Assembly: GCF_026210795.1 (NCBI RefSeq)
Contig: NC_089430.1
Location: 3,782,001-3,846,000, forward strand
Origin: Rhizophagus irregularis
Lineage: Eukaryota
Reading direction: 5' to 3'
DNA length: 64,000 nucleotides
The position numbers and the translations under genes were made by a program. The notes beneath the pieces are model-generated. The model saw nothing but the letters and a program-made list of their open reading frames with translations, had not been told where the DNA came from and did no database searches. Of the stretch, positions 22,901 through 62,965 are shown in pieces (positions within the stretch are counted from its first letter, which is position 1; every line of letters starts with the position of its first letter).

Positions 22901-24691
22901 GAGTCTCGACCTGAATATTCCGCATGTGTGGGACTAGTGATAAAATGGCCTCATTGAATTTTTCTAAATAATTTCTTAAAATAGTATTTTCACCTCTTGC
23001 ATTAGGGATTTTAGCCTTAAAATCTCTAACATTTTTCTCTGCTTTTTCCTTTGCATCGATAAGACCATTATGTTTGGACGCTTGTTGCACGATTCGTCGC
23101 CGTGCATCCGTAATTCGTACCTCACGTTGGGCAGTGTATCCTGCGTACGCATCCTCGAATATTTCCCGAAGATTTTGACCGGGAAATCCACCTTGAAGTT
23201 GGGTATTACGTTCATCAGAACGTTTTAAACACTCATCAGCAAGAAAATCGTCTCGCATTCGAATCCACTTTTCGATTTTGTTTTGCCGAGGATGATCATT
23301 TGGTCCATGTTGCTTGCAGTACTATTTATAAGAAAATCATGTGTATATATAATTATCATATAGATGATTAACGAAACATAAATGATTAAAAACAAATGAT
23401 TAAAACTTGCGATAAAATAAGGGTCCGAGATATTTTCCTCGTCAACATACTCGGTGAGACCGTAGGCTACCGCGCACGTTGCATGAACCCAATTTTTACA
23501 TTGTCCGGCATCACAGTGTATTGCAGCGCCTTCTTCACTGTTGCAAACGTGACATTTCTAAACGAAAGAGAAAAAATACCAAATATATAATAAGTGTTGA
23601 TAAAATTAAAAACAATATATGTATTTTAAAAATAATACTTACTTTGCCCCAATTCTTAGGGTCAACATTCACAACCTGAATATCTCTCAAGTCTGCAGCC
23701 GAGCCGATATGCATGCCCGGCATCCAGAAAGCGCACAAAATATGAACCCAAACCATTGGCTCACCAGCCTCATCAGAGGCCCTTATTTTTCGAAAAGCTC
23801 CATTTTTATTAGGGCACAAAACGCAACGCTATTAGGTACAGGCAAATGTTAGTTTGATTTATAAAACAATCTATATCTTTGTAATTACTTACTACTGCAT
23901 CTGATGGTAGTGCAAGACAACGATCACAGTACCATGGGTCTTCCTTCTTCGGCAGTGTTGTGATCCCATAACATTCTGATATAAATTAAATGAAATTTTC
24001 ATTATACACAAATCATCATATCTGCGCCACGTTTTTCCGTTATAAACCAAAAGAAAAGTACATACCCTGATGAACAACGACATCACACTCCTTACCGTCG
24101 CAATAGACAAGGACATTATCTTTTGTTGCATCTTCATCTAGACATACGCAACAAAGGCCTGGATCCGACCTTTTCTATCAATGACCAAAAAAAGGAAAAG
24201 ATATTACGTTAATAATTTTTTTTTTGGGAACAGAAACTATAATTCCATCAAAAAAAAATCTCTCCTCTCTCGACAAAAAAAATAAAAAAAATAAAATAAA
24301 AAAATCAACCAGTATTGAAACCCTATTAGAAAAATATATATATAATTGGTCAGAAAATTTCAATAATATTTAAATATTCAAATACCCATTTTCGTAGCCA
24401 TCTAGCTCTTGGTGATTGGTCAGTTTCATTTTCTTCTGAAGAACTTTGTTCTCCTTCTTGACCAGCAACTACTTCTTCTCGGTCACCGTTCACGTTTTCT
24501 TCACCTGTATTGTTAAGTGGTGTTGGCGTATTTTCATGATAGCTTGAGTCACTATCATTTTGTTCACTCACAACAGTATTTTGTGAGCTTCCATTGATCT
24601 CATGCTCGCTCGATGAAGGACCCATTCCATATTCAAAATCAGGGTCGTGAGCAGCTCTTCTGGTAGTTCTTCGTCCTCGCTGAGATGCCAT
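19935..24691 (-). CDS. PHD-zinc knuckle-PHD (PZP; AF10/Jade/BRPF-like) chromatin protein with long disordered middle and C-terminal PHD finger
   Basis: Spliced exons give CCVCLDE...LVYCDGKECDVVVHQECYG...WYCDRC, CVLCPNKNGAFR...WVHILCAFW, C..C...WVHATCA. The terminal exon ends in CTIC...CGYCSKWYHLACMVPP...WRCAEC. Confidence 0.85.
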
Positions 24692-38984: not shown

Positions 38985-39214
38985 CTTCTGGCCAATTAAA
39001 ATTTAACAATTTTTTATATATACAGTCAACTCCCTCTATAGTCACTATCACACCTATCCTCAAAAATCTTATATTAAAAAGAACCGTTTATAATCACAGT
39101 TATATAAAGAATATATTAAATAACTTGGCATCTAATAATCGTACAAAGATGTATCATAGCTTGTTAGAATCGTCTCACTGAGACGAATCGAATGGCGGTA
39201 GTTTTATCCTTTCC

Positions 39215-40187
39215 TTTCGCTATTGTTTACGGCCGTACCACCCATTGCCTCTTATGAGACTAATCTCGGTCCCGCGTCCTATCATCTTCAATAGGCAACC
39301 ATTAAACCGCACTTAATTCCTCAGGTAACAGCACCATGTAAGACATCCCCCATCGAGCCATTTTAGGCCGATCTGAAGCTGGTGACACGCCGCCTACTCA
39401 TCCTTAATCCATTGTACGATACTGGTACTCAATTTATTTTACGACCTTAGAGAGCACCTACTTTCATGGTGACTTTTGACAGGTAACGTCAACCATCTGA
39501 TGTAGGCCTAACCACTGGCATTTTAGGTACGGAGGTCGGCATCAATTACTGGCAGCCCGCGTCTAGCGCCGATAGTACATTGTTTGCCCACAAGTGGTAT
39601 ACTTATGTAGTGACCACTCGGACAGGAAGTAGCGAGGCTTCGTTCGGATGGCACCCCCTTATGGTGGGTATCGACCAGGAATCGCCAACGGGCCGAAGTG
39701 GAGGGGAATGACAACCCCCATGTATGCCTACCTGTGCGACGTGCACGAAGCACCTTGATTGGCTAAGGCCACAACAGAAGGTCTAACTACCACTAAGACA
39801 TTGCACCCTCAGCTTTACCATCTGTGACGACCATCTAGCCATTACTGACCCCAAGTGGTATCGTGCTGACCACCCAGACAGGAAGCCCCCCAAGGTATAG
39901 TAGCGACCTCCGCGACAGGACTGCGCACATGCCACGGGCCTCATAGCGAACGTTAGAAGGACACCACGACCCTTAGCTTGAAATGTGCGGCCTGACCGTA
40001 CACACTAATTCACCATGATGCAGTCCCAACTACACTAATCCCTGTACCTTCACGCTATTGGTTGTAGCGTCCGCAGTAAAATTCTTTTTTATTTCCGCTG
40101 GTCATAGGAATCGAACCTGCGACCTCCACCATACTCAGGCTTAATGAGGTCTCAGCGACTAACCACCGAGATAGGGCGACCAACCCT
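39215..40187 (-). mobile_element. tRNA-headed SINE-like unit 1 (divergent middle segment)
   Basis: Minus-strand head with GGTTCGATTCC B-box. Flanked by target motif copies at 39200-39214 and 40188-40202. Confidence 0.8.
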
Positions 40188-40202
40188 AGTTTTATCTTTT
40201 CC

Positions 40203-41067
40203 GCGTATTGTTTACGGCCAGACCACCCATTGCCTCTTATGAGACTAATCTCGGGCCTGCGTTCTATCATCATCAATAGGCAACCATTAAACCGAAAGAT
40301 TAATTCCTCAGGTAACAGCACCACGTAGAAGACATCCCCCATCGAGCCATTTTAGGCTGATCTGAAGCTAGTACACGCCGCCTACTCATCCTTAATCCAT
40401 TGTACGATACTGGTACTCAATTTATTTTATGACCTTTAGAGAAGACCTACTTTCATGGAGGACTTTCGACAGGTAACATCAACCATCTAGCACTTACATA
40501 CCACCATTTTATGTTAGCATTTGCGGTCTCACTCAAAGCGCCACTACAGCCCGCGATTACCTAGCACCGATAGTACAGTTGTTTACCCCAAGTGGTATAC
40601 TTACGTAGTGACCACTGACAGGGGAAGTAGCAGGCTTCTGTCCAGGATCACCCCTTATGGTGGTATCAACCACCAGGATCACCAACCAGGACCCAAGAAG
40701 TGGGGAATCGAACCCCATAACCATGCTACCTGTTCTGTGCACGAACACCTTGGTTGGCCTAAGACCTAACAGAAGGTCTAACTACCACTAAGACATTGCA
40801 CTCTCAGCTTTACCATCTAGGACGACCATCTAGCCATTACTGACCCCAAGTGGTATCGTGGAGTGACCACCCAGACAGGAAGTCCTCCCCAAGGTATAGT
40901 AGTGACCTCAAGGACAGGACTGCGCACATGCTAATGGCCTCATAGGAACGTTAGAAGGACACCATGACCCTTAGTTGAAATGTGCGGCCTAACCGTACAC
41001 ACTAATTCACCATGATGCAGTCCAACTACACTAATCCCTGTACCTTCACGCTATTGGTTGTAGCGTC
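40203..41067 (-). mobile_element. SINE-like unit 2, 5'-truncated (lacks tRNA head)
   Basis: Homologous to the other units but ends at GGTTGTAGCGTC, directly joined to the target motif at 41068-41083. Confidence 0.8.
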
Positions 41068-41083
41068 AGTTTTATCCTTTTCC

Positions 41084-42050
41084 TTTGCTATTGTTTACGG
41101 CCAGACTACCCATTGCCTCTTATGAGACTAATCTCGGGTCTGTGTCCTATCATCTTCAATAGGCAACCATTAAACCGAGACTTAATTCCTCAGGTAACAG
41201 CACCATGTGTAAGACATCTCCCATCGAGCCATTTTAGGCTGATCTGAAGCTAGTACACACCGCCTACTCATCCTTAATCCATTGCATGATACTGGTACTC
41301 AATTTATTTTACGACCTTTAGAGAGCACCTACTTTCATGGAGGACTTTCGACAGGTAACATCAACCATCTAAGCACCCTTCCATACCACTATTTTAGGTA
41401 CGAGGTCTCACTCAAAGCGCCACTACAGCCCGCGATTACCTAGCACCGATAGTACAGTTGTTTACCCCAGGTAGTATGGCTTATGTAGTGACCACTGACA
41501 GGAAGTAGTAGGCTTCGTCCAGGATCACCCCATGTGGGTATCAACCACCAGGATCACCAACCAGGATCCCAGAAGTGGGGAATCGAACCCCATAACCATG
41601 CTACCTGTTCTGTGCACGAACACCTTGGTTGGCCTAAAACCTAACAGAAGGTCTAACTACTACTAAGACATTGCACCCTCAGCTTTACCATCTAGGACGA
41701 CCATCTAGCCATTACTGACCCCAAGCGGTATCGTGCGACCACCTGCATATGCTCCCCCCAGCGCATAGAAACACCTCAGCGGACAGGACTGCGCACATGC
41801 CAATGGCCTCATAGTGGAACGTTAAAAGGACACCATGACACTTAGCTTGAAATGTGCGGCCTAACCGTACACACTAATTCACCATGACAGTCCAACTACA
41901 CTAATCCCCGTACCTTCACGCTATTGGTTGTAGCATTCGCAGTAAAATTCTTTTTTATTTTCGTGGTCGGGAATCGAACCTGCGACCTCACCATACTCAG
42001 GCTTACAATGAGCTTTCAGTAACTAAACACCGAGATAGGCGACCAACCCT
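41084..42050 (-). mobile_element. SINE-like unit 3
   Basis: Full-length copy followed by the target motif at 42051-42066. Confidence 0.8.
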
Positions 42051-42066
42051 AGTTTTATCCTTTTCC

Positions 42067-43032
42067 TTTGCTAATGTTTACGGCCAGACCACCCATTGCC
42101 TCTTAATAATTAATCTCAGGTCTTCATATTCTATCATCTTCAACGCAACCATTATACCGCACTTAATTCCTCAGTAACAGCACCACTATAGAAGACATCC
42201 CCCATCGGGCCATTATAGGCTGATCTGAAGCTAAGACACGCCGCCTACTCATCCTATACCCATTGCATGATACTATACTCAATTTATTTAACGACCTTTA
42301 GAGAGCATCTACTTTCATGGAGGACTTTCGACAGGTAACATCAACCATCTAAGTACCCTTCCATACCACCATTTTAGGTACTAAGTCTCATTCAAAGCGC
42401 CACTACAGCCCGCGATTACCTAGCACCGATAGTACAGTTGTTTACCCCAAGGGTATACTGTACGACCACTCGTACATGGTAAGTAGCTTCTCGTCCAGGT
42501 ATCACCCCTTATGGCGGTATCAACCACCAGGGATCACCAACCTAGATCGTTAAGTGGGGTCGAACCCCATAACTACGCTACCTGTTCTGCGCACGAACAC
42601 CTTGGTTGGTCTCGCACCTAACAGAAGGTCAAACTACCACTATGACATTGCACCCTCAGCTTTACCATCTAGGACGACCATCTAGCCATTACTGACCACA
42701 AGTGGTATCGTGGAGTGACCACCTGAACAGGAAGTCCCCCCCAAGGTATAGTAGTGACCTCAAGGACAGGACTGCGCACATACCAATGGCCTCGTAGGGA
42801 ACGTTAGAAGGACACGCACCCTTAGTTGAAATGTGCGGCCTAACCGTACACACTAATTCACCATGATGCAGTCCAACTACACTAATCCCTGTACTTTCAC
42901 GCTATTGGTTGTAGCGTCCGCAGTAAAATTCTTTTTATTTCCGTGGTCATGGGAATCGAACCTGTGACCTCACCATACTCAGGCTTAATGAGGGTCTCAG
43001 TGACTAACCACCGAGATAGGGTGACCAACCCT
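42067..43032 (-). mobile_element. SINE-like unit 4
   Basis: Full-length copy followed by the target motif at 43033-43048. Confidence 0.8.
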
Positions 43033-43048
43033 AGTTTTATCCTTTTCC

Positions 43049-43552
43049 CCTGTACAAACAGTCTTATGACTTTATCTTTTATTTATACTTTGAACTTCGA
43101 AAATATAATCGAACAATATTACAAAAATAAGAAAATAAACTAATAAAAAATAAAAAGAGTAGCTTCACGATTCATACAAGTAAAGAAATCTAAACTAAAA
43201 TAAAATTAAAGCAAAGAAAAACTGAACTATTACAGAATCGCATACCCCAACTTTACCCAAAGGCCAGTGCTGAGTCAACTATCCAACATCCAAAAATCCA
43301 GTCCGTTACCAGAAAGAAATCCTAAGAGGTTGAACTGTTAAGCGGCGCAGAAAATCCAAGTGCGAGATCCAAGATCCACCCCGAATTATAGAAGAGAATA
43401 TCCAAGAAATCCAGGAATCCTGAGAGACTGACGCCAAAGAAGAGTTGTGTTGTTGTGAAGAAGTAGAATTAGGAGAAGCATTTGTAGATGGGCCACGTAA
43501 TTTGGAAGCAGCCGAGATACCCTGCGACTCTTCCCAAGCATGGAAAAGAACA
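43049..43552 (-). mobile_element. LINE 3'-terminal fragment (~500 bp)
   Basis: Near-identical to 53130-53630 (3' UTR plus ORF2 C-terminus ...SWISHLDF). Confidence 0.88.
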
Positions 43553-43821
43553 CACTAGCAAGCTAGTCGAATTAATCTTTAACCGAAGTTTTATGTGTAA
43601 ATTCTGGCTGACATAAAATGTTGTAAAATTTTGTAATTCAATAGAGTAAATTCATCAATCGCTAAAGCGCTGTATATAAATTTCTGATACAGAATGATAA
43701 AATTTGTATTCATAAAGAAAGAGGAAAGGAAATAGGAAAGCTTAAAATAAGCATGAAAAAAATGAAGTGTAAAAGGAGAATAATAAAAGGAAGGTAATTA
43801 ATTAATAAGAAACCAGCGCAA

Positions 43822-46145
43822 TTAGCGCATTAAAAAAACAGGATGAACAAAATCAGCGGGTAATTCCCACGATGTTCGGAAATCAGAAGGAGCAGGGTAA
43901 GGATGTGAATCAAACCAAGGTGCACAAACATCCAATAACATTAAGATATCACAAGGTTTAACACGACCTAGTTTGAAAGAAAACCGTGTTTCACTATTCC
44001 AAAGATGTGAAAATGTCGAAGAGGAAGCCGATTTGGTGATAACAGATTGAATGGCATCTCGAAGATACTTCTTTGATACCGAGGAAGTATTGTGCTTGGA
44101 AATTAATAACCAAAGGAAATTGTAGAAGAGGTACATAAATGAAGCACTATTCGAGAGTATCCTTCAGGACTATATCAATAATGGAACGACTAAAGCCAAG
44201 AGTTTTGAAATCTTGATAATCAATAGCAGGGCAGTTCGGACCAACAAAAGGACCAGAGGTGGGTTTGTCAGTGATAAAATGACTTGCAACTACAGAAGAG
44301 GGATTCAAAACCACTTTTTGGATAGAACCTGTAAACTTAGAAGACACGAACGCAACAGAAGATTGATGTGAACGTTCTTTTAAACAGAAGGAAACGTCAG
44401 GACGTGAGGATACAAGATTACGTATATTCTGGACAATTGAGTAATCAGTAGTAGACATAGTCAAATTATAGGAGGTAGGAGGAATGACTATAGCAGGATC
44501 CTTAGTGGCCATCCACATAGAAGAGTCAAGAAGATCGGGGTGAACAACATGTCGTGAAAATTTGCTCCGGTCTGATAAAAGGTCTTTACGCGTACTTCGA
44601 CGAGCAAGTTGTTTCTTCGTAGGGTGGGAGATAGATTTGTGAGCAGAATATGAGATAAGAGTTCGGGCAGAGAGTGAACCACTGTCGTCTCAAGAACATG
44701 ATGGAAAGCATAGGATTTGCGGTAGGAAACTCCTAGACGTCGGGAAGTAACGTCTTTATAAAAACCATCAGCGTGTCTTTTAGACACACGATTACAAGGT
44801 AAAGCGAAAGGAGGACAAGGAGGAGGGGAAGGAGTGTGAACAAGTTTTTTGTCATGAATATGACAAGCATGCGAAATGAGACATAACATAGGCAGCACGA
44901 GTCTTGCAAAACGGGCAACCAAAATAAAGGCCAAGGTAAAAACAAGATTGTTGGTATCGAAATTGAATAAAGGTACGAGAAGACGTCTATTATTACGATG
45001 AGAAGATGACCAACGGGCAAGAGAGGTAACCCGTTGTGTTAATAAAAGCTGGCGTAACCTATTAAAATATTTACGTCGAGCATGGGAGGGAATACGGTTT
45101 TGTCGGTAAAAGAAAAAGGTTAAAAATTTTGATAAAATAAATTTCAAATTAGGAGAAGGGCGGTCAGATGTAAATTGAAATGGATCCATAGTTGAAAGGA
45201 GAGGAGAATTGGTATGAACTGAATAACAATTATCCGAATCAGGAGTGGGGTCCAAAAGAAAGTAACAGTTGCCTCGGCGAATAGAATATAAACGGTTAGA
45301 GCTAACATTTCGAGCAGGACGTATCCGTCCATCCAAGATGGTACGTATTGTGAAAGTGTAAGATGAACACTGTACATTATCATGAAGAAGATGGGCTGAA
45401 GTAGAAGTTGCCGGTAAAGGTTCCGCAGGTGTACAATTCAAAGAAAGGACTGGAGAAGGGACGTTAATGTCATAATCAGCAGTATCTTCTGAAACTGAAA
45501 TTCGGGGAGTAATAAGAGAGGAGTCTAGGAATGTATTTTGAAAGGGACTTATAGGTTCAGAAGGACGTGATAAAGGTGGAACCAATAAACGTATTGTAGA
45601 AGGAGATAAAACCAGACGCGTAAAAGACAATTTAGTCTTAATTTTCTGTGCGCGCTTAAAAGATGCAGGGGAAATCATAGAGGATACGCGTTTACAAAGA
45701 AATTTATGAGTACGCCGTGAAGGGCGTAAACAATTGGTGCGTCGTGTAGAAGGGGTACGATAAATCTAAGATGAGATTAGGATCAGCCTCGTGTTTAGAA
45801 GCCCAAATAGCTAATGGAAGAGGAGGTAGATTATCAATCAATGGATCATCATGTGATTGATGATCGTCAACGAGGGGATAGCGAAATCCTTTTCGAATCC
45901 GCAGTAGACGAAAGAGTAGCAAATGCAAGTGTAAAAGGCGTTTTTGTTCAGAAAGAGATCATCTACATGAGCGCCAAAAGCGAGTAAGCACGTGACTTGG
46001 CGAAGAGTTATCAGGAAGAGAGTTGTAACGAGCAAAAAGAGTTTCTTGTTTAAGGGCGCACTTAGCGCGAAGGTCCTCAACTTCGCGAAGTTTGGAAAGA
46101 ACTTCATCCCAACTCAAGGTTGAGAAGTCGTGAGAAGAGGCCATA
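43822..46145 (-). pseudogene. Degenerate long ORF of unknown function (~770 codons with stops and frameshifts) joined to the LINE 3' end
   Basis: Consecutive minus-strand ORF pieces from MASSHDFSTLSWDEVL to ...ELPADFVHPVFLMR*. No introns evident; includes a CPFC...CHIH cluster. Confidence 0.6.
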
Positions 46146-46292
46146 GGCCAGAATAAGAATAGAAAAGATAAAAATAAAAGAAAAAGTAATAAAAAACTTT
46201 GGAAAAAAAATTTTTTATTTTTATGTAAATAATGTCGTGAGGGCAACGGGAGAGAGTTCAGTTTTTAGTTTTTCCTAGTTTTATCCTTTTCC

Positions 46293-47263
46293 TTTGCAAG
46301 TGTTTACGGCCAGACCACCCATTGCCTCTTATGAGACTAATCTCTGTGTCCTATCATCTTCAATGGGCAACCATTAAACCGAGTACTTAATTCCTCAGGT
46401 AACAGCACCACATAGAAGACATCCCCCATCGGGCCATTTTAGGCTGATCTGGAGCTAGGTACACGCCGCCTACTCATCCTATACCCATTGCATGATACTG
46501 ATACTCAATTTATTTTACGACCTTTAGAGAGCATCTACTTTCATGGAGGACTTTCGACAGGTAACATCAACCATCTAGTACCCTTCCATACCACCATTTT
46601 AGGTACTAAGTCTCACTCAAAGGCCACTACAGCCCGCGATTACCCAGCACCGATAGTACAGTTGTTTACCCCAAGTGGTATACTTTGTAGTGACCACTCA
46701 GACAGGAAGTAGCAGGCATCTGTCCAGGATCACCCCTTATGGTGGGTATCAACCACCAGGGATCACCAACCAGGACCCAAGCGAGAAATCGAACCCTATA
46801 GCCATGCTACCTGTTCTGTGCACGAACACTTTGGTTGGTCTAAGACCTAACAGAAGGTCAAACTACCACTAAGACATTGCACCCTCAGCTTTACCATCTA
46901 GGACGACCATCTAGCCATTACTGACCCCAAGTGGTATCGTGGAGTGACCACCCAGACAGGAAGTCCCCCCGCGGTATAGTAGTAACCTCAGGACAGGACT
47001 GCGCACATGCCAATGGCCTCCATAGGGAACGTTAGAAGGACACCATGACCCTTAGTTGAAATGTGCGGCCTAACCGTACACACTAATTCACCATGATGCA
47101 GTCCAACTACACTAATCCCCTGTACCTTCACGCTATTGGTTGTAGCGTCGCAGTAAAATTCTTTTTATTTCCGTGGTCATGGGAATCGAACCTGCGACCT
47201 CACCATACTCAGGCTTAATGAGGGTCTCAGTGACTAACCACCGAGATAGGGTGACCAACCCTT
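46293..47263 (-). mobile_element. SINE-like unit 5
   Basis: Full-length copy between target motifs at 46277-46292 and 47264-47279. Confidence 0.8.
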
Positions 47264-47410
47264 AGTTTTATCCTTTTCCGATCACTGGCTGACGAGTTAT
47301 TCAACAAAATGTTAAACATCGGCATTATAATATTTCTTGATTTACGTTTACTGCGCCATTTAACATTTTGCTAGATTTCTCAGTACCTAGTGATTGTAAA
47401 AAGACGATTT

Positions 47411-47790
47411 ATAGCTCGTTGGAATCGCCTCATCGAGACGAATCGAATGGTGGTAAGCTCATCTCTCTATGATCAATATATTGACGGAGTTATTACTTAA
47501 AAACTATTTAATATTTTTTAATTTCGGAAATTGATCTAGTGATTGGATTTCAATGTATCTTATACCATTAGATTTGTCTCATCAAGACGAATCGAATGGT
47601 AGTAAGATCGTTTTTCTAGGATCAATATTGGCAGAGTTATTATACAAAAACCATTAATATTTTTTTAATTTCGGAAATTAATCTAGTGATTGGATTTCGA
47701 CGTATTTTATACCATTAGAACCGTCTCATCAAGACGAATCGAATGGCGGTAAGATCATCTTTCTACGATTAACATTGGCAAAGTTACGAT
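47411..47790. repeat. Three ~148-bp internal repeats with long palindromes (host copy 1)
   Basis: TACCATTAGA(T/A)...GTCTCATCAAGACGAATCGAATGG at ~47563 and ~47710, with a variant at ~47420. Confidence 0.8.
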
Positions 47791-48214
47791 ACAATAAAGT
47801 TTTAAGTATAATTCTGGCTAAAATTATGTTAATTTTTGGCCGGAATTATGACATACAAATATAAGAAATTTTTTATATAGTCACATCTCTTTATAATCAC
47901 CAAATATGGACTGTCCCAAATGTGTGACTATAAAGAGAGTTGACTGTATATATGAATTATTTTGTAAAATTTAAATAGCAATTTATAATATTTTTTTTAT
48001 TTATTTAACTTTATAATTAATAGAATTTCATATCAATTTAATTTTATTTAATTATATTATATAATAAGGGGAGTTACATATATTACGTAATATTCATTTT
48101 AATATAAACTTACTCCCCTCTCCCCTTTGTCAGATTTAATAACCAATCAAATTATAATATTTATAAATTATATATTTTATTAAGTGTAACGTAAAATTTT
48201 GGTTACCCTCCTCC

Positions 48215-51200
48215 TATACATGCGGGTGAATTAGGATTAGGTGATGCCAAAATATTACGGCAGTGTAATGTATTACACCACAAAATGTCAAAATGAGTTA
48301 CACTACCGTAATGCCAAATTGGCGAATTGACGAAATGAATTACACTGTCGTAATGCCGAATTGATGAATTGACGAAATAAATTGCACTGCCATAATGCCG
48401 AATTGACGAAATGACAAATTGCCAAATTGCCAAATTGATAAAATAAATTATACCGTATTACCGTTGAATTGCACTTTATTAAAATCATTAACTACTTTTA
48501 ATTATTTACTTCAAATAATTTTTATCAAATTATAAATCTTTATCGCATAAGTTTATAATATATAAAAGCAGTACAAAAAAATTTATTATATATAAAACTA
48601 CTACTCAGAAAAAAACTATTACAAATTACCTATTTTAAAGAAAAACAAAAAAAAATACTACTGTAATTACTGCGTTTCATTTTCTTTAGTGCTATTAACT
48701 TTAGCAAGAATATCATCTACATTAAATTTCATTTCACCATGATCAATTTTTTCAGGTTCCATTTCTTCCTCAGACCTCAGTATGATTTAATTTAATCAAA
48801 TTACCTACTATTAAATCTGAATCATCTTCGGTTAATTGATCATTATTTCCTTCTTCATCTTCTGGAACCAAATTTTCAAAAGGATCATTATCATTTTCTA
48901 TTTCATTAATAAACATATCTGAATCTGAAGTAAGTGAATTAGTATAACTTTGCATTATTTCACTAAAAGCGTCATCAGATAGATTTTTGCCAACATAATT
49001 AAGTTCTTGTTGTGCATTCAAAATATAAAATGAATGCAATCTTGCCATATTGGATACTTTTTCCACTTTAAGTCTAATAAATATAAAAAAGAATTTAATA
49101 AAAAAATATAAATTTTAATAAAATAAATATTCTATGAATATACCTGCTTCGTCTTTTTTGGGTAAACCAATTTAATACTGAGAAAACACGCTCACAGCTT
49201 GCACTATGAGGAACAATAGAAAGAATATATAAAGCCAATTCTTGCAAATAATGATTTGATTGTTTACATCCTAACCACCATGATTGGGGAGTTTGAAGTT
49301 CGTCAATATAAGGAAAATTATAAGGAGACTTAAAATCATCATAATTATTCATTTGAACAGCAAGTGTAAATGCTGATTTTAATCCTCCGCCCATTTTTGA
49401 CCATAAGGCAAAAGCTTTCCTTTGGATTAGTAATTGATAGGTTTTAGGTATAAATCCTTTTCCGCGAAATTTTGGATGCAAAAAATATGCTAGTAAATAT
49501 AATTCATGATCAAACTGCTTCCATCTATTATTATAAAATTGAATGCATTTTTGCCGAAACTCTTTTAATTCTTCAGTACTTTCAGTAGATAAAGCCTTGA
49601 TAGCAGTAGCCATTTGAATGAGAGCCAAAAAAACATCAGCCATAGTTGCATTTTTACCTTCAATACTCTTCACAGCATTTTTTGCAGGTTCTAAAATAGT
49701 TGTAAGACTTTCAACATTCAACCAAAAATTTCGATTATTTACTAAATTTTGTAAAGTTTGATTCATTGCTTTAGAATCAGCAATTAACATCTAGAAATAT
49801 AATAATAAAATATTTAATAATTTGACATTAACTTAGAAATTAACTACAATTTCACTTACATTTTTGAAAATAGTTTCTAAACGTAATACTGATGTACAGC
49901 AATCCCAAGCAGTACTCCATCTTGTTTTAACCGAACTTTTTAATCTACCTCCAACAATTAACTCTTTTTTGATTTTTTCACGAAGAGTAGCTCCAGATTG
50001 ATGTGACTCAGCAAAATAAGTAACAAATTTCTGACAGTTAATAAGTATATTATTTGAAAATGGATTTTTTTTCATAATATCAGTACAAATTAATTGCACG
50101 TGATGAGCGATACAACGGACTGGCAAAATTTTAGGATATTCTTCAGATATTAATCTCTTAGCTAATTGCATAGCACTAGCATTATCCGACACTACTGAAG
50201 AAAAACGCTGTGGGCCTATATCTTTAAGGACTTTCTTTATTTCTTCTGCTGTAAAAAGACCAGTGTGAGAGTTTTTTGAACAGTCTTTAACTTTAATTAC
50301 ATATTCTTTTCGTTCAGGAGTAATTATAACAAAAGAAAAATAAGAATGATGGTTGCTACTTGTCCATCCGTCTAACACTTAATATTGAAATAAAAATAAT
50401 ATTAATATTTATTGGAGATATAATAAATAAAAAAAAATTATTTACCAAGTGAAAGATTTTCTTGTTTTTTAAGTATTTCTTCAACATCAACGGTAATTCT
50501 TGCCACTTCATTACTAAGCCAAGTATCACTTAATGTTTTCCTGTCTGGCAATTGATAACTAACGCATAAATTCATTACAAGATCAATAAAGAATGGACTT
50601 TCTACAGTAGAAAAAAGGACGCCACAGCATACAAAAAATCTAGTCAATGCTCTATTACAAAGATATTGTTGTCCAGGATCTATTGCTGATTTTTGTAATT
50701 TAGATGTGATTTTTGGTTGAATTCCAGTTGCAATTTCTTCATTAAGTTTTCGCTTCCTTGTAGTAATTCGACCAGAAGATTGCTCATTATTTTGTGCAAG
50801 AATTCTGAGATATTGTTCTTTAACTGAAGCTTCAACTTTTTCACATTATAATGCTAAATGTGCCATCATATCTGGAACTCTTCCTCTGTTCCAAGCATCG
50901 CCACAATATACACAAGTACTAGGTGAGTGGCCAAATTTTCTAGCTTCCTCTTCAATAAAATAATTCCATATATCATTTTTTTTCTTGCCAGGCTTCTTGA
51001 ATTCTTCAGTTTCCGGAAGATCTGATAATTCTACAAAATTTAGATCTTGAAAAGATCTTGTTTCATCAAGAGAATCTGTTTCATTAGCCATAATTTCTCT
51101 TTAATTAACTTTTGTAATAGAAAATTTGAAAAAAAATAGCATGCGAAAACTTTTTCCGATAAATATTGATCAACCTGATTACATTTTAGCCAATCATTAA

Positions 51201-52546: not shown

Positions 52547-53129
52547 CCCTCCCCCCCTTTGATAATTACATAATATCTGTAAGCTTCCTAATTGAAACAT
52601 AGAATTTTTTATAATCATAATTATTTTTATTATACACTGTATTAATTAATTTAACTATATAAATTTATATTAGAAAATACATTATTAGTTAATTAATAAT
52701 ATAATTTGTAATTAGATAGTATAATAAAACAATGCAATAAATTTTTATATTAAAAAAAAATTTTAATTAACATTTTGTTTTGATTGTTTTATGTATTTTC
52801 TAATAAAATATTAGTGTTTTTCAATTAAAAATACAGTCAACTCCCTCTATAGTCACTCCCGTTATAGTCACATTCTACTATATAGTCACACCAGTTGAAT
52901 GTTCAAAACACTTTATTATTAAAAACTATCCTATATAGTCACAATCTATCTATAGTCACTATCACACCTATCCTCAAAAATCTTATATTAAAAAGAACCG
53001 TTTATAATCACAGTTATTTAAAGAATATATTAAATAACTTGGCATCTAATAATCGTACAAAGATGTATCATAGCTTGTTAGAATCGTCTCACTGAGATTA
53101 ATCGAATGGTGGTAGTTTTATCCTTTTGC

Positions 53130-55523
53130 TGTGCAAACAGTCTTATGACTTTATCTTTTATTTATACTTTGGATTTCGAAAAGTAATCGAACAATATTAC
53201 AAAAATAAGAAAATAAACGAATAAAAAATAAAAAGAGTAGCTTCACGACTCATACAAGTAAAGAAATCTAAACTAAAATAAAATTAAAGCAAAGAAAAAC
53301 TGAACTATTACAGAATCGCATACCCCAACTTTACCCGAAGGCCAGTGTGAGTCAACTATCCAACATCCAAAAATCCAGTCCGTTACCAGAAAGAGATCCT
53401 AAGAGGTTGAACTGTTAAGCGGCGCAGAAAATCCAAGTGCGAGATCCAAGATCCACCCCGAATTATAGAAGAGGATATCCAAGAAATCCAGGAATCCTGA
53501 GAAACTGACGCCAAAGAAGAGTTGTGTTGCTGTGGAGAAGTAGTATTAGGGAAAGAATTTGTAGATGGGCCACGTAGTTTGGAAGCAGCCGAGATACCCT
53601 GCGACTCCTCCCAAGCATGGAAAAGAACATTCCGATACAGCCAAATTTCACCATATAATTCGACTTGGAAGTCATTAAGAAGGGGAGAAATAATCTTGTA
53701 TATAACAGAGAGAGGAAAGTATTGATTCAAAAATGCCGTTAAATGCGCAGGCAACAATCCTCGAGTAAGCCAAAGACAGGATGAAGAAGGAGCTTCATAG
53801 TTCCAGCAATCCAAAGCAAAGAATGCAGTATGAAAGGAATTATCCAAAGATTTCAAGGATAAGAAAGAAGATAAACAAGAATCTCTAAATTTAATGACTT
53901 CAGACCGGTGTGTTAAACAGGGATTTAAATCTGGTAAAATATAAGGACAAGTCCAAAGATGATTCAAATCTTCAGGAGCAGAATTACACTGCGGACAGAG
54001 CCAGTCAGGAGAATATAAGTAAGGTTTACGTTGTTGAAGAGTAGTTAAGGTAGGCAACATATCCAAAAGAAGTTTAATGCGGAAGATCCAAAATTCAGGA
54101 CGACCATTCCTATGTGAAACAAAACCTTTAATTTGTGAAAGGCAAAAATATATACCAGCCCAATCAAAAAGTGAAGGAGAACCAAGAGCAGTAAAACGCG
54201 CTAGTGAACAGAAAGATAAGAGAGCACGAGCATCTGCAATAGAGCGGAGAAAATGTCGAATATTCACGTCAATAGGCAGGGAGTTAAAGGTCAACAAGCA
54301 TGGAGCATAACAAAATGTCGAAAGTAAAGTAGTGGGTTGTAAAGACGAATGAGCGTCTTTTGCCAAAGAATCCGCTTGTATATTGTAAATATCATCGCCA
54401 TGAGCAGGGACTTTAATCAATTCGACATTAAGATTACGGTCCATGATAAGTTGTCGAATAAAAAGCCAAAGAAGATGATTAGGTTTTCGGAGCAACCTCG
54501 GTGAGAAAGGAGCATCAACAAACCGTGTCCATAGTGAAATTAACTGACTACAATCAGTATGAACAGAGATTGACGAATTACGGGAAAGGGCATTCAGTCC
54601 TAACAGGACAGCAGAAATTTCAGAACGCAAAGCGGAAGGAAAGTAAGAAGGGAGATGCATGGAAGAAGATTCCAGAACAAGTCCAACATCATCAAGAGCG
54701 ATCCAAGCAGAAGTCATGGAAGAAGGCGAAGAATCATTGGCATGATGGAACGAACCATCTGTGTACAAAGATTGCACCGAAAGTGGTAAAATAGTGTCTT
54801 CAATTCTATCGATACTATCCTTAAAAAGAGGAGAAAGAGCGAGAGACGCGTTCGAAAAATGAACAAGAGCCAAGGAGGTTGCATAACTCCATGAAGTAGA
54901 TAGAGTAATGGGAAGATAAGCCGCGAAAACTTTGGCATTTCTGGTAGGATAGCCCACAGTATCCGATAGGGTTACATTAAAAAAGCATTTCTCGCTATTA
55001 CAGCGTTGTCTGATGGCAGATTTCATGGATAAGGCGGGAATGTTAAGAGCACAACCGGGACAAGGGTTATAGGATCGTTCATCAGCCGAGGTAGATACAG
55101 GAAGCCAATGAGACATAATAGCCGAGTTTTGTTTCTTATAAGTGATACACACACGACCAACAGATAAAGTTTGAGTAGCAGAGTCAAGAGTAATAACCCA
55201 TTGAGGATAAAAAGAATAATCTTTAACAGTATGATCTAATAAACAAGGAGAAGCTAAAGTAAAAGAAGAATTAATAAAATATGAAGATAAAAGTAAAGTA
55301 GAAGAAGAAGAAGAGAGAAAATTATTATTGATAAAAGTAAACCAATTAGGGATCCGTCCTTTACGACCAACGATGCCAAGATAACGAAGGTCAGGCCAAT
55401 TCATAAGATAACGTCCACAAGGAGAAACCAACTGAGCAAGCACAAATATATTCAGGTTTTTCCAAAGTTTCCAACTCGATTGAAAAATGGAATGAGGTAG
55501 AATAGATCGGAGTGGCAGAGCAG
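53130..55523 (-). mobile_element. 5'-truncated non-LTR retrotransposon with 16-bp TSD
   Basis: AGTTTTATCCTTTTGC at 53114-53129 and 55524-55539. Encodes RNase H and a C-terminal zinc finger. Confidence 0.92.
53383..55443 (-). CDS. LINE ORF2 C-terminal part: RNase H plus CCHC zinc finger (RT lost by truncation)
   Basis: LYTDGS, SALRSEISAVLLGL, VHTDCSQLI, KVPAHGDDIYNIQADSLAK and CPQCNSAPEDLNHLWTC. Confidence 0.88.
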   Translation of the reverse strand: MLAQLVSPCGRYLMNWPDLRYLGIVGRKGRIPNWFTFINNNFLSSSSSTLLLSSYFINSSFTLASPCLLDHTVKDYSFYPQWVITLDSATQTLSVGRVCITYKKQNSAIMSHWLPVSTSADERSYNPCPGCALNIPALSMKSAIRQRCNSEKCFFNVTLSDTVGYPTRNAKVFAAYLPITLSTSWSYATSLALVHFSNASLALSPLFKDSIDRIEDTILPLSVQSLYTDGSFHHANDSSPSSMTSAWIALDDVGLVLESSSMHLPSYFPSALRSEISAVLLGLNALSRNSSISVHTDCSQLISLWTRFVDAPFSPRLLRKPNHLLWLFIRQLIMDRNLNVELIKVPAHGDDIYNIQADSLAKDAHSSLQPTTLLSTFCYAPCLLTFNSLPIDVNIRHFLRSIADARALLSFCSLARFTALGSPSLFDWAGIYFCLSQIKGFVSHRNGRPEFWIFRIKLLLDMLPTLTTLQQRKPYLYSPDWLCPQCNSAPEDLNHLWTCPYILPDLNPCLTHRSEVIKFRDSCLSSFLSLKSLDNSFHTAFFALDCWNYEAPSSSCLWLTRGLLPAHLTAFLNQYFPLSVIYKIISPLLNDFQVELYGEIWLYRNVLFHAWEESQGISAASKLRGPSTNSFPNTTSPQQHNSSLASVSQDSWISWISSSIIRGGSWISHLDFLRRLTVQPLRISFW

Positions 55524-55671
55524 AGTTTTATCCTTTTGCGATCACTGGCTGATGAGTTATTAAACAAAATGTTAAGCATCGGCATTATTATATTTCTTGA
55601 TTTACGTTTACTGCGCCATTTAACATTTTGCTAAATTTCTCGGTACCTATGGATTGTAAAAAGACGATTAA

Positions 55672-56050
55672 TAGCTCGTTGGAATCGCCTCATCAAGACG
55701 AATCGAATGGTGGTAAGCTCATCTCTCTGTGATCAATATTGACGGAGTTACTACTTAAAAACCATTTAATATTTTTTAATTTCGGAAATTGATCTAGTGA
55801 TTGGATTTCGATGTATTTTATACCATTAGATTCGTCGCATTAAGACGAATCGAATGGTAGTAAGATTGTCTCTCTAGGATCAATATTGGCAGAGTTATTA
55901 CACAAAAACCATTAATATTTTTTTAATTTCGGAAATTAATCTAGTGATTGGATTTTGATGTATTTTATACCATTAGAACCGTCTCATCAAGACGAATCGA
56001 ATGGCGGTAAGATCATCTCTCTACGATTAATATTGGCGGAGCTACGATAC
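55672..56050. repeat. Three ~148-bp palindrome-containing repeats (host copy 2)
   Basis: TACCATTAGATTCGTC-GCATTAA-GACGAATCGAATGGTA at ~55821, with related copies at ~55680 and ~55968. Confidence 0.8.
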
Positions 56051-56307
56051 AATAAAGTTTTGAGTATAATTTTGGCTAAAATTATATTAATTTTTGGCCG
56101 GAATTATGATATACTAATATAAGAAATTTTTTATATAGTCACATCTCTTTATAATCACCAAATATGAGGATCATCGCAACTCTTTCCTGAATTTTTGAAA
56201 ATACTAATAAAAATTTATTTTTGAAATTTTCGTTCGAAAATTTCTAAGTGCTCGTTCAAAATACTAATATCTTCCCAGTTGCTTTCCTCTTTACTGAGCT
56301 TTAAACT

Positions 56308-58422
56308 ATGACTACACCTCCAGCTCCTTCTGTTATTAACCCAGATATTCCACCGCCATCGCGTCCTGTTGTTTCTACTCCCTCTGGAGACCGACCTTTA
56401 TCTCCCACTAGTACCGCTGGCGCACCTAATAAACGTACGCGTACTGTCTCTGATGACGCGATGAATGTTGATATAACTTCGCCCTCAGCTCCTGCTCCCA
56501 CCCATACTTCTACCGTTCCTTCTGGTCTTCCTGTCAACAAAGTCCAAGTGCTTACCTCTCTTCATAATACTACTACTCCTGTTGAAACAGTTGACGCTTC
56601 TATCCATGCCCCCTCTAACACCGATGGTAAAGGCAAAGCTGTTGCCTTTGATATCCCAGAACGCCAACCATCCCCCGATGGTAATACCGCCGCTATCAAA
56701 TCTGCACCATCTCGTTATCATGCTGCGGCTTATTTACGCGATGTGCCTGACGCGTTCAAAGCCAAATTCACCACCAATCGCTCCATGTGTGATGAAGTGG
56801 ATTGTTCACTCTTCCGATATTCCTCCTATGGCGCTCGCGCACGCTGCGATGAATCAGGTGATAACAAAAAGATCCTTGTCTTCTTCTATAATCAGCATGA
56901 TTTTACCGATTGTGTCAGCTCCCCACGTGCAGATCTTCTCGATTTAGTCTTCACTCATTATTCCCCTGCAGATGTTAAACTCAGCGACGAAGCGAAGTCT
57001 TTGTTTGTCACTGACATCCCACTTTTCCTAAACGAGACACAAGTCCGCCAGGCATTTTCCCGATATGGTACTGTGATCAAGTGTAAACTCACCCCTAAAA
57101 AACATTACTATAATGGTCATATCCAATTTTCCTCTGCGGATGCAATTACCCAATTTAACGATATCTGAATGATCATTTGCCTAGGTAATTCCTTACGTGT
57201 CTGTTCGGCATCTTTCTCGAAATCCCAACGTGATAGCCAAAGAGAACATGTCACCATTCTTGCCGGGATTCCAAAAAATATAAAAGAAGCTGACCTTTTA
57301 GAAATTGCTACTCAAGTCAACGCTAAAGCCCTTAATGTCCCCCTTTCTATTAATTCTTATAAGCCCAAACCTTATGTGTATTTAAACTTCTCTTCGTTTG
57401 ATACCCTTGAGGCGGCGAAATAGTTATCTGTGGCTTTCCGCGGCAAAGGTTTAACATGGCACCCTCCTAATGAAGCTCACACTTTATGTCATGTCTGTGG
57501 ACGTTCAGGTTGCTCCCCTTCTGTATGTAACCCTCGTCCCGCACACAAAGTGGATGATCGCCTTAACAAACTATATTCACGCTTTAATGCTGGTCCTCAA
57601 CGTGGTCATCAGGATTCGCACCCATCACATGATACATCCAATTCCCGCTCAAGATCGAGATCCACCTCTAGATCCCGTAATAATTCGTCCTCATCCAGAA
57701 CCAACAACACTAATAATAATCTTAACACTTCTCGTCCCAATGTTCCTAACTGTAGCAACCAGTTCAATAACAATAATACCGATTCTAGGAACAATGCAAA
57801 TTCTTCTGGTTCTACCCAATCTCCGCACACTCTTCATCCTAACAATACTACATCTACTTCTCTGAATAACAACCTTAATTGTACGCTTCCTCAACACATC
57901 ATTGATGAGTTAAAGGCGCAGATCAAAAAGATAGCTATCACCCTCAATACTCTAGAGGAAACTGTCTCTTGGATGAATGATACTATCACAGCCCATGAGT
58001 ATAGGCTATCTGAACTTGAATCAATGATGAATTATGACAACCCTGGTGACTCTGATTTGTATCCGCCTCGTGATGATCATGAAAATCAAAATCATTCTTA
58101 TGATAATGGATGGGATGATGCTCCAACCCAAGACACAAATTCTGGATTCAATCTTCCTCCCCATACTTCCCCTTCTCTTATGGACACTTCTCCTGATGCA
58201 TCCTTTTCAGCTCTGGACCCTAACTCCATCTTATCACGAAGACATGTCCCCTTACCTAACTCCCGACCTACTATTATTACCCCCGATGCTAATACTTCCC
58301 GTCTGCAATTGGAAATTTCTAATGTTACTAATACGCAAAAGAATCTTTCTGCCCAACTTGGTTCGATTATGGAAAAATTGGACTCCTTCTCTCCCTCAAA
58401 ACCCTCCCCTTCCAATGATTGA
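56308..58422 (+). pseudogene. LINE ORF1 (RRM domains plus Cys/His knuckle-like motif), two in-frame stops
   Basis: LFVTDIPLFLNETQVRQAFSRYGTVIKC (RRM), second RRM-like region YVYLNFSS, CHVCGRSGC. Stops at 57166 and 57421 in one frame. Confidence 0.8.
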
Positions 58423-59413
58423 ACACCATTTTATATTGGGTGTTTCACAGGGATTTCACCCCCCTGATAGTGCGATACCTAATAATATCAATAATCCTAA
58501 CAATTCTTCTTTTTCTTCTTCCCCTCTTATTAATTTTGGACAAATCAATGTTAATGGTTTGTGCTCCCCTGTTCGTCAGCTGCATTTGTTAAATTATTTT
58601 CTCCATTCTTCTTTTGGCGTTTTATCTTTAAACGATACTCGTCTTACTTCTTCTAGTGCTAAATTTATTTATCAAAATGAACATTCCCAGTATAATTTTA
58701 AGTCCTATTGGGCTCCTTCCCCTTCTAATTCACGTCCTTATGATGGTGTTAGTCTTTTGCTTCGCCATCCCTTACATAAACATGTTCAGAAAATTGATCC
58801 TTGGAAAGGTCGTCTTTTAAAATTGGATCTTTTTTTCCATCAAACAAAAATTTCTATCATTTCCGTTTATATTCCTCCTTATCATTCTATTCATTACAAA
58901 GAACGTGATGCTATTTTTGCACAACTCAATTTATGGCTTGATAAAGCCCGTTCTAATAACTATCACGTTGTCATTCTTGGTGACTTTAATGCAGATGAAT
59001 TTTCACATTCACATCTTCCTCAACATCATTTAAAAATTTTGCGATCACTTTCTTTTTGATATTTTACGGATCATCAATCCCATATTTCTTCAATTTCAGG
59101 TCCTAGTCCTACCTTTTATTACCAAAATGGTTCTTCAAGACTTGATTATATTTGGTCATCCCCTGGATTTCCTGCTCCCGGTCTTTTCTCTCATGTTGAA
59201 TCTTGTCCTAAGCTAAATGATAATCAATTTACTGATCACCGTGTACTCTTTACGGCCTTTGACTTTAGCTCATGTTTCGCTACTTTATCCAAAGCTAGAT
59301 TAAAACAGAAAAGCGAACAACGCACCATTTTTCTTTATAAGAATTTAAAAGAAGATACTTGAGACACCTTTTCTAATGAAGTTAATTCACGTCTCGAGTT
59401 ATATTTGGCCACA
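58415..59413 (+). pseudogene. LINE ORF2 N-terminus: APE-type endonuclease
   Basis: INVNGL, LNDT, DGV, SVYIPP, ILGDFN, SRLDYIW and FTDH. The ATG overlaps the ORF1 stop; stops at 59057 and ~59360. Confidence 0.88.
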
Positions 59414-61507
59414 CACCCTATAAAAAATATGTATACAGTTTTTATACTGTATATACGTATTTTTGATACAGTTTGCATTTTTACATACGGCATATCAGTA
59501 TAATGTATACTGTTCGCAAAATGTGCTTAGTAAAAAATACAATAAAGTATACGGTAAACATACTGTGTGATACGGTATATTAAATTCATACGTCTATAAC
59601 GTATATCATTTCTACTGTATATCAGTATTTTGTATACGGTTCACAAAAATATTGTAAATAAAGAATACGGTATACGTATTATTCTACAGTATATTAAAAT
59701 TCATACGTTTATAACGTATTTTCTACAGATATACACAGGTCAAATAAATAAACATCAGATTTTTGCCCTTTTTAATATGGCTGTCTGATTTTTTTGGCAA
59801 TTTTAATATAATATTTCCGATTTTAATAAATATTTCTGATTTTAATATAATATTTCTGATTTTTAACATGAAATTGCCGATTTTTGGTTATTTGTAATAG
59901 GATTTTTCGATTTTAATATATAACATGTGATTATGTATTACGGTTTAATATTTATTTATTAACTTAGATTTTTTTTTTATTTCAGTTATAATTATTTTTT
60001 TGCCTTTTTTTCTTAAATATAAATACATTTAAATTAAATAACTCATAATTTAAAATATAAACAAATATTATATTTTTTTACATATATTTCAAAGTATAGT
60101 TTGAGCATTTTGGCTGAAGTAAATCTTATTCTTTTAATTAAAAGTAGTTTAGTAAGTTTAAAACTGTTAAGATCATAAAAGTACAGTTAATATTTTTGGA
60201 ATTATTTACATTTTTTATATTATATAGTAGTATTAAATTACAAATTTTTTTACCTTTAGAGCGTATTTTGAGATCTTTAGCCAAAGTAAATCAACTTCTT
60301 ATATTAATTGTAAGTTGTTCGGCAGGTTAAAATCTACTTGGATATTAATTTTCACGAAGGTACAGTTAATACTTGATGAGTTATTTACAATTTTCACAAC
60401 AGTACTCATTCACGACTTTTATTTTTTTCATTTTGTCACTTCAGAGCGTATTTTGAGATCTTTAGCCAAAGTAAATCAACTTCTTATATTAATTGTAAGT
60501 TGTTCGGCAAGTTAAAATCTACTTGGATATTAATTTTCACGAAGGTACAGTTAATACTTGATGAGTTATTTACAATTTTCACAACAGTACTCATTCACGA
60601 CTTTTATTTTTTTCATTTTGTCACTTCAGAGCGTATTTTGAGCACTTTATCTAAAGTAAACCAACTTCTTATATTAATTGAAAGTTGTTTAGCATGTCAA
60701 AATCTACTTGAATATTAATTTTCACGAAGGTACAGTTAATACTTGATGAGTTATTCACGATTTTCACAATGGTACTCATTTACGAATTTTATTTTTTTCC
60801 GTTTTGTCACTTCAGAGCATATTTTGAGCACTTTAGTCAACGTAAATTGACTTCTTTTATTAATTGAAAGTTGTTTAGCATGTCAAAATCTACTTGAATA
60901 TTAATTTTCACGAAGGTACAGTTAATACTTGATGAGTTATTCACGATTTTCACAATGGTACTCATTTACGAATTTTATTTTTTTCCGTTTTGTCATATTT
61001 TGAGCACTTTAGTCAAAGTAAATTGACTTCTTTTATTAATTGAAAGTTGTTTAGCATGTCAAAATCTACTTGGATATTAATTTTTACAAAGGTACAGTTA
61101 ATACTTGATGAGTTATTCACGATTTTCACAACAGTACTCATTTACGAATTTTATTTTTTCCATTTTGTTACTTCAGAGCGTATTTTAAGCACTTTAGCCA
61201 AAGTAAATCGACTTCTTTTATTAATTAAAAATTGTTCAGCAGCTTAGAATCTACTTGAATATTTATTTTAATGAAGGCACAGTTAATATTTGTGGAGTTA
61301 TTAATTTTTTATAATTGTGCGTATTACATTAAATTACAAGTAAATTTATATTCTTAATGTATTTTGTTTAAAATTTAATTATTTAAGATTAGTTTTTTAT
61401 TTAATATTGCTTAATAAAATATTTTTTAAATTTTAATTCAATATTACAATATAATTTTTTATAAAAATATATATTTCATAATGTATATACAATTTTTTTG
61501 TATAGTG
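59414..61507. mobile_element. Possible CAC-terminated non-autonomous DNA element
   Basis: Begins CACCCTATAAAAAATATGTATACAG. Weak inverted match ending ...GTATAGTG at 61507. Dense TATAC(G/A/T)GT subterminal repeats at 59430-59720. No TSD seen. Confidence 0.35.
60095..61310. repeat. ~185-bp tandem repeat, about 6.5 copies
   Basis: AGAGCGTATTTTGAG... unit starts at about 60258, 60443, 60628, 60814, 60995 and 61175. Confidence 0.92.
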
Positions 61508-61689: not shown

Positions 61690-62965
61690 ATGTAAAATCA
61701 CAATTATTAAAAAATTCACAAGAATTTTTGTTAATACTGTTTAATTTTTAAGTTCAAAGTCCGATTGATAATACTAAATTCAAAACTCAATTATAAATCA
61801 TTTTTATAAATTATAATTTAAAAATTAAGCAGTATTAAGGAAAATTCTCATGAATTTTTCTTAATACTACTTAATTCTAATTTAACTAATTTAGTATTAA
61901 GGTTTTAATTTAAAAATTAATCAGTATCAAGGAAAATTCTTGCGAATTTTTCTTAATACTGCTTAATTCTAATTTAACTAATTTAGTATTAAGGTTTTAA
62001 TTTAAAAATTAAGCAGTATCAAGGAAAATTCTTGCGAATTTTTCTTAATACTGCTTAATTCTAATTTGACTAATTTAGTATTAAGGCTTTAATTTAAAAA
62101 TTAAGCAGTACGGTGCAGAACCTCTATAATAGGAACTTAAAAAAATTTAAATAAAATTTGATTCTATGATTGAATTTTAATTTTATAAAAAGAATTAAAC
62201 TCTATTTGTTAAAAGGAATTTATTTAAAAAATAAAAAAAAAGTCTCAATTTTTTAGATTATGTAAGCATCATGTGATACATATATTAGCCAATCAGAAAT
62301 TAGGATTTTATTAATTATATGATATAAAAATTTATATAATATATTTGTTTATTGTATTTCATTATAAACTGATGATTGATGAATCAGGTACATAATAATG
62401 AGATTTATATTTTATTATATGCATTTTTTGATTAAATTAAAGTAAAATTACTTAATTTTTGAATTCTTTTGTTTATAAATTTATCATCTGAACTGTCTTT
62501 TAAATATCATTATTTATAACATTAAATTAACCTATACTTAAATAATTTTGTTTATTAATTTTTTTTTTTGCAATATTAGAACTTTTTTTTCTTTTTAGCA
62601 TATTGAAAAAAAAATCTGAAGTAAAATAATAATTAATATTACATTAAATGTGGTTAAAAAAGATCTGTAATGCAAAAATTAGACTAGTCTCAATTTTAAC
62701 TAAATTTTGTCAGTATATTTAAATTACAGATTTTTAAACAGCTAAAACTTAGCCAAAATTTAATTTAGAAAAAAAATAACTGATAATTTTTAAAGCTAAT
62801 GATCATATCTATAAAAATTATCGGTTAAATTTTTTACTTTAATATAAAAAATTTTTTTTTTAGAAATTTATAATCAATCAATTGTTACTATACATAAGTA
62901 GTTGAGTATAGAGGTTCTGCACTATATCAAGGAAAATTCTTGCGAATTTTTCTTAATACTGCTTA
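61690..62965. repeat. ~90-bp hairpin-containing tandem repeat interrupted by a MITE
   Basis: AATTAAGCAGTATCAAGGAAAATTC-TTGC-GAATTTTTCTTAATACTGCTTAATT repeated. Resumes at 62925 after the insertion. Confidence 0.85.
62111..62924. mobile_element. Non-autonomous Tc1/mariner-type element, 814 bp
   Basis: TIR core GTGCAGAACCTCTATA at both ends. TA duplicated (62109-10, 62925-26); removing it restores AAGCAGTATCAAGG of the 90-bp repeat. Confidence 0.88.

Follow-up and report, generated by a model that had tools for sequence, protein, structure and literature searches.

A LINE and a SINE at a common target site of a DNA transposon in Rhizophagus irregularis, with a small predicted hairpin near both 3' ends

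The window analysed in this study is a stretch of 64,000 nucleotides from Rhizophagus irregularis (contig NC_089430.1, positions 3,782,001 to 3,846,000 of the forward strand; coordinates below are those of the window). It consists of low-GC fungal DNA and carries a MULE transposase (9342-10787), a Tc5/CENP-B DNA-binding domain (32381-32905), hAT-like remnants (49095-50845) and a PHD-finger ORF (19935-23321). A TA-flanked, non-autonomous host DNA transposon of about 0.9 kb is present in two copies (39023-47946 and 52834-56166), and one and the same site is interrupted in both. At locus A, one end of the host transposon is a TA-flanked terminal repeat at 39023-39198, and the other part (47280-47946) ends in an inverted terminal repeat and TA. 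At locus B, the end with the TA-flanked terminal repeat CAGTCAACT lies at 52834-53112. The other part (55540-56166) contains three internal repeats of about 147 bp and, at 56152-56166, a second target for insertion (target 2).

Locus B holds a 5'-truncated LINE of what we call lineage 1 (53130-55522, minus strand). It is enclosed by a right TSD at 53113-53129 (GCAAAAGGATAAAACTA) and a left TSD of 16 bp at 55524-55539, both on the minus strand. The 714-codon ORF is the C-terminal part of ORF2 and includes an RNase H domain and a zinc-knuckle-like motif (CPQC...H...C), and it is followed by a 3' UTR of about 250 nt without poly(A). A database protein of the same family (P0081), which is 98% identical to the ORF in the window over 107 aa, has both APE and RT domains, and the LINE is assigned to the APE type. 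Matches in the PDB to human L1 ORF2 (E 1e-20) and R2 (E 2e-18) do not discriminate between clades. The ORF has 84 homologues, every one of which bears the name Rhizophagus irregularis.

The same host element also received a LINE of a second lineage at the other site and in the opposite orientation (56167-59420, plus strand, at target 2). This copy encodes an RRM-like ORF1 and an APE domain, and its 3' part is missing. It breaks off past the endonuclease region at 59420, and host copy B lacks its far end. Beyond it, the window contains a tandem array with a period of about 170-180 bp (60067-61308) and a palindromic, internally repeated block (61705-62110).

Locus A (39199-47279) is an array of six units in one orientation with a single TSD between neighbours, in the order SINE 5, element A, and SINEs 4, 3, 2 and 1. 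The right TSD of the array occupies 39199-39215 (minus strand), and further copies start at 40187, 41067, 42050, 43032, 46276 and 47263. The five SINE units, all on the minus strand, lie at 39216-40186 (unit 1), 40203-41066 (unit 2, in which about 115 nt are missing from the 5' end), 41084-42049 (unit 3), 42067-43031 (unit 4) and 46293-47262 (unit 5). The SINE is a non-coding, multi-copy and TSD-flanked element of which 5'-truncated copies are present, and with about 970 nt it is longer than SINEs usually are. Its tRNA-like head contains an exact B box (40107-40117 in unit 1); the match of the head to the Rfam tRNA clan is weak (E 0.61), and ARAGORN finds no tRNA. The spacing from the A-box-like motif to the B box (40095-40186, minus strand) is long, as in intron-containing or long-arm tRNA. 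A second B-box-like motif is present in the middle of units 2 and 3 (40704 and 41579) and is degenerate elsewhere; given this motif, the SINE may be composite.

The sixth unit of the array is the non-autonomous element A (43049-46275, minus strand). Its segment at 43049-43552 is 95.6% identical to the 3'-terminal ~505 nt of the LINE. The remaining 2.7 kb (43553-46275, minus strand) carries an ORF of about 770 codons (46144-43825) that belongs to no known family and has no Pfam match. We rejected the view that element A is an internally deleted LINE because no LINE protein matches 43553-46275. The ORF has 39 homologues, most of them named R. irregularis or R. diaphanus, and a search for its family in the Atlas gave leads that all scored below 0.8. 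The ORF occurs in multiple copies in R. irregularis and R. diaphanus. In three gene models, the 5' end of element A follows SINE tails. Element A is possibly a coding non-autonomous family, and its joint with the LINE tail may be a trait of the family or the product of a single template switch.

The LINE, element A and the SINE are inserted at an identical site of the host transposon with TSDs of 16-17 bp, and all nine junctions in the window carry this site. Outside the window, three kinds of sequence served as evidence: contigs assembled from public runs, five loci in metagenomes, and gene models in databases. The contigs include empty sites, SINE heads beside LINE ends and SINE ends beside the host flank. 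When metagenomes were searched with a target-site pattern, five matches were obtained, all of them without insertion. One match (L004) is an empty copy of the same host element, in which the site occurs once and which is ~94-98% identical to the flanks in the window; the other four belong to another family. The same pattern had no match in viral contigs. Protein-seeded scans of prokaryote genomes, viral contigs and metagenomes returned no relatives, and 31 prokaryote matches of a hairpin-plus-site pattern were set aside as chance hits with no similarity to the window.

Some further observations concern the surroundings of the target. The four loci of the other repeat family (L001, L002, L003 and L005) have different ends and carry the same GGATAAAACTACCACCATTCG within long imperfect inverted repeats, so that the target sequence is common to two repeat families. 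In the host element, the target adjoins a 45-nt imperfect inverted repeat (L004:716-849; window 47263-47410), and on the opposite side of the target there is a palindrome (39164-39192). DNA structure around the target may help in the choice of the site.

A preliminary description of this DNA had claimed that the LINE and the SINE share a 3' stem-loop and that neither has a poly(A) tail. Its account of the sequence was largely reproduced. The LINE ends in the hairpin AGTC-ATAA-GACT (53150-53139, minus strand), which has a 4 bp stem and an AUAA loop and is followed by GTTTGCACA and then by the TSD. An identical hairpin at 43071-43060, followed by GTTTGTACA, ends element A. This copy had been taken for a second LINE end; the hairpin is there as described, and the LINE identity was not upheld, since the motif terminates a non-autonomous element of 3.2 kb whose ORF is unrelated. 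The SINE hairpin, GTCTC-ATAA-GAGGC, has a 5 bp stem with one G-U pair. It was found in the four of the five SINE units for which it had been reported, where GCCTCTTATGAGAC starts at 39247, 40232, 41115 and 46324 (39247-39260, 40232-40245, 41115-41128 and 46324-46337 in units 1, 2, 3 and 5), and it is disrupted in unit 4 (~42099-42111), also as reported. The core TCATAAGA is common to the LINE, element A and these four SINEs. As the preliminary description had stated, the outer pairs are unlike in the LINE and the SINE and still pair (G-C versus C-G and A-U versus U-G). The distance from the loop to the 3' end is 13 nt in the LINE and 36 nt in SINE 5, the latter within the 35-40 nt that had been given for the SINE. 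No poly(A) was found at any junction in the window, each of which has at most three A ahead of the TSD.

The predicted fold of the hairpin depends on its context. In folds of 60 nt, the core pairs had a probability of 0.75-1.00 in six of the seven ends. In longer contexts the values ranged from 0.00 to 1.00; at 100 nt they were 0.09 for SINE 5, 0.00 for element A and 0.50 for the LINE. The tails showed no extra stability compared with shuffled sequences (z -1.7 to -0.1; SINE unit 4, +1.6). Covariation in the stem had been suggested as a check of the hairpin and was looked for in the five SINE tails, but none was found: RNAalifold arrived at a different fold, for which the covariation term was 0.04. 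In a possible lower stem of the SINE, no more than one change looks compensatory; it is in unit 1, was read by eye and was not counted. In the LINE 3' UTR, the variants listed from contigs cluster at 53165-53189, and none of the 40 listed, out of 95, falls in 53129-53164. A second small hairpin with a variable loop lies at 53175-53191 (minus strand), within this most variable stretch of the 3' UTR.

The SINE tail is near-invariant wherever it was sampled, in contigs as well as in gene models, and the family is too uniform for covariation. We collected 28 database gene models in which the reading frame runs through the SINE tail. Of these, 26 end in site-encoded residues and two diverge earlier, a proportion to be read with the fact that the query itself contained site-encoded residues and may favour such matches. 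Fifteen of the 28 run on into another SINE head. Three of the 11 matches of one search were unrelated repeat proteins and were removed before counting. The residues encoded by the hairpin are unchanged in 25 gene models and altered in three, and the flanking positions are equally constant. In the contigs of runs X3 and X4, no listed variant at or above 1% lies in the SINE hairpin, and two lie in 46292-46341; one RNA run gave only five and one short contigs. As far as these sequences go, the SINE tail is uniformly and not selectively constant. The gene models also mean that at least 28 'hypothetical proteins' in the database are read-throughs of SINE tails.

We assessed by shuffling how often such a match would arise by chance. 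The core TCATAAGA occurs 10 times in the window where 4.6 are expected; six of these occurrences are element ends, and none of the remaining four has a stem beyond 2 bp. A hairpin counted as shared when its loop and two closing pairs were the same in both elements and the stem had at least 4 bp in each. With 20,000 dinucleotide shuffles each, a shared hairpin in the last 60, 100 or 200 nt had P = 0.0004, 0.004 or 0.013, and for an 8-mer common to the last 60 or 100 nt of both elements P was 0.04 or 0.12; these are post hoc P values, since the test was picked after the motif had been seen. When the elements are compared over their full length, the expectation is 0.7 shared hairpins and one was seen (among 163 SINE and 284 LINE hairpins), and this sole one is the hairpin near both 3' ends. 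Only the position of the hairpin is therefore unusual. The best local alignment between the LINE and SINE tails was the 8-mer itself (P 0.08-0.19), alignments past the 8-mer were not significant (P 0.08-0.8), and blastn found nothing significant. Taken as a hairpin, the match exceeds chance and would fit a role in recognition.

The 3' end of the second lineage bears on what this role might be. Three database relatives of the second LINE (P0044, P0065 and P0079) are 40-46% identical to the C-terminal half of lineage 1, and in P0044 and P0046 the reading frame continues into a 3' UTR similar to the lineage-1 one. In run X13, a diverged contig (53133-53358) has substitutions at 53328 and 53316 that match the C-terminal read-through of P0044 and P0046. 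No substitution is listed for this contig in 53133-53164, which is not significant (P 0.09-0.27 for the last 32 nt). In a further contig of this run, the hairpin end is directly connected with target 2 and with the second LINE's 5' end. From these two contigs of one run, lineage 2 appears to end in the same hairpin.

Good support for the pairing of the LINE and the SINE comes from their common target site and TSD and not from the hairpin. The hairpin had originally been proposed as the cis signal that links the pair. The pairing stands, by way of the target and the TSD, but the hairpin is unlikely to be the link: with lineage 2 apparently bearing the same hairpin at a different target, the hairpin alone cannot tie the SINE to the lineage-1 LINE. 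It is likely a clade-wide recognition element rather than the determinant of pairing. We favour a model in which a sequence-specific APE LINE mobilises the SINE in trans at one site and the hairpin serves as a general recognition element, and give the model as a whole a probability of about 0.5. In this model, the SINE would likely be moved in trans by the lineage-1 LINE, the endonuclease of which would set the site and nick the pyrimidine-rich bottom strand. ORF2 would bind the hairpin as a general handle. The choice of the site would probably be aided by read-through RNA, which would extend into the TSD and pair with the nicked strand. T runs within the SINE do not exceed four, and a T5 is first encountered in the host flank; read-through into the TSD is thus plausible. 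Each target-primed insertion would regenerate the site, by which the array could grow.

The alternative that survives best is that the hairpin is coincidental or inert, that the SINE is moved by relaxed recognition and that targeting comes from the endonuclease and read-through only. A shared 8-mer at the P values given above and the expectation of 0.7 shared hairpins per element pair agree with this view, as do the lack of tail homology, the lack of covariation and the context-dependent fold; in addition, RNA resembling the target may anneal with it, as described for R1Bm in PMC7265360. However, the single shared hairpin is located at both 3' ends (P 0.0004-0.004), the differing outer pairs are kept as pairs, and the terminal region is apparently kept in lineage 2. 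We regard an inert hairpin as possible but rather unlikely.

A bolder form of the favoured model is that an 8-nt tetraloop hairpin, acquired without a LINE-derived tail, would suffice to license trans-mobilisation by the whole LINE group, while read-through of the passenger's own RNA into the duplicated site would pick the target. This form is doubtful. If it were true, recognition would be governed by one RNA code and targeting by another, separable from it, and the locus would represent a minimal system for site-specific insertion that occurs naturally in an arbuscular mycorrhizal fungus.

In its strict version, the original proposal makes the hairpin a specific cis signal that binds the SINE to the lineage-1 LINE, as in UnaL2/UnaSINE1. 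The identical loop and two closing pairs and the lack of poly(A) are in line with it, and PMC4176376 reports that, in stringent LINEs, it is specifically the loop that ORF2 recognises. On the other hand, lineage 2 appears with the same loop at another site, SINE ends occur only at site 1 and none at site 2 among the loose ends and gene models listed, and the shared tail of about 60 bp that PMC1636434 gives for the eel pair is absent here. These points make the strict version improbable. Least probable of all, and hardly credible, is that the extreme 3' end at the TSD (TTGCAAA in SINE 5, TTGCACA in the LINE), and not the hairpin, is what is recognised or serves in priming: the termini match when the ends are aligned flush (anchored P 0.007-0.02 for SINE 5 versus the LINE) and the SINE-5-type end is common in gene models, but SINE 3 and element A gave no significant match (P 0.08-0.19) and the last 8 nt differ among the five SINEs of the window.

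We found no description of this LINE-SINE pair in the literature, and curated repeat libraries may contain the families. SINE and LINE families of these fungi are named in the available portions of PMC11075540 and PMC11952901, though not in such detail, and the former reports that Rhizophagus repeats are mostly unclassified. The word 'SINE' is absent from the main text of PMC8647823, and the supplement text of PMC11075540 contains none of the motifs. The fungal pairs Mg-SINE/MgL and SINE2-1_BG/Tad1, which are listed with a LINE-related tail (PMC3747384), resemble the present case in that a fungal SINE with a tRNA-derived or, here, tRNA-like head has a partner LINE, but the SINE described here has no LINE-related tail. 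As in R1Bm and SART1, where target-like RNA ends may pair with the target (PMC4494074, PMC7265360), read-through RNA might pair with the target here.

UnaL2/UnaSINE1 and ZfL2 have a homologous tail of about 60 bp, a GGAUA loop, terminal UGUAA repeats and proof from assays (PMC1636434, PMC4176376). Like these, the pair in R. irregularis has a 3' stem-loop common to the LINE and the SINE, here as a predicted fold, and lacks poly(A). Unlike UnaL2/UnaSINE1, it shares only 8 nt, at differing distances from the end, and has a fixed target. Terminal repeats of the UnaL2 type, which serve template slippage, were not found at the junctions in the window. Of the features by which stringent pairs are recognised, the same loop was present in both partners, and tail homology over tens of bases was not. 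Judged in this way, the feature and the pair are real, and the hairpin resembles the stringent type but fails the test of a shared tail. If the hairpin works, it would be an unusually small recognition element; if it does not, the target-sharing system still stands.

The closest parallel is found in crocodilians, where SINEU and Tx1-Mar both target the non-autonomous transposon Mariner-N4_AMi with a 16-bp TSD, SINEs in tandem sandwich a TSD, and the pairing was argued from the common target (Kojima 2015, PMC4494074). In both systems, a SINE and an APE LINE are inserted in a non-autonomous DNA transposon with tandem SINEs around the TSD, and different LINE families occupy two target regions, each in the orientation opposite to the other, with one SINE confined to one of these regions. 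Tx1 of Xenopus in Tx1D is likewise a sequence-specific APE LINE inside another transposon (PMC4494074). The present system differs from the crocodilian one in that it occurs in a fungus, its SINE is ~970 nt long with a tRNA-like and not a U1/U2 head, its ORF2 includes RNase H, and it has an ORF-bearing non-autonomous passenger. The results presented here provide a concrete LINE-SINE pair in Rhizophagus and show that the nested, site-specific layout of the crocodilian elements is also found in a fungus.
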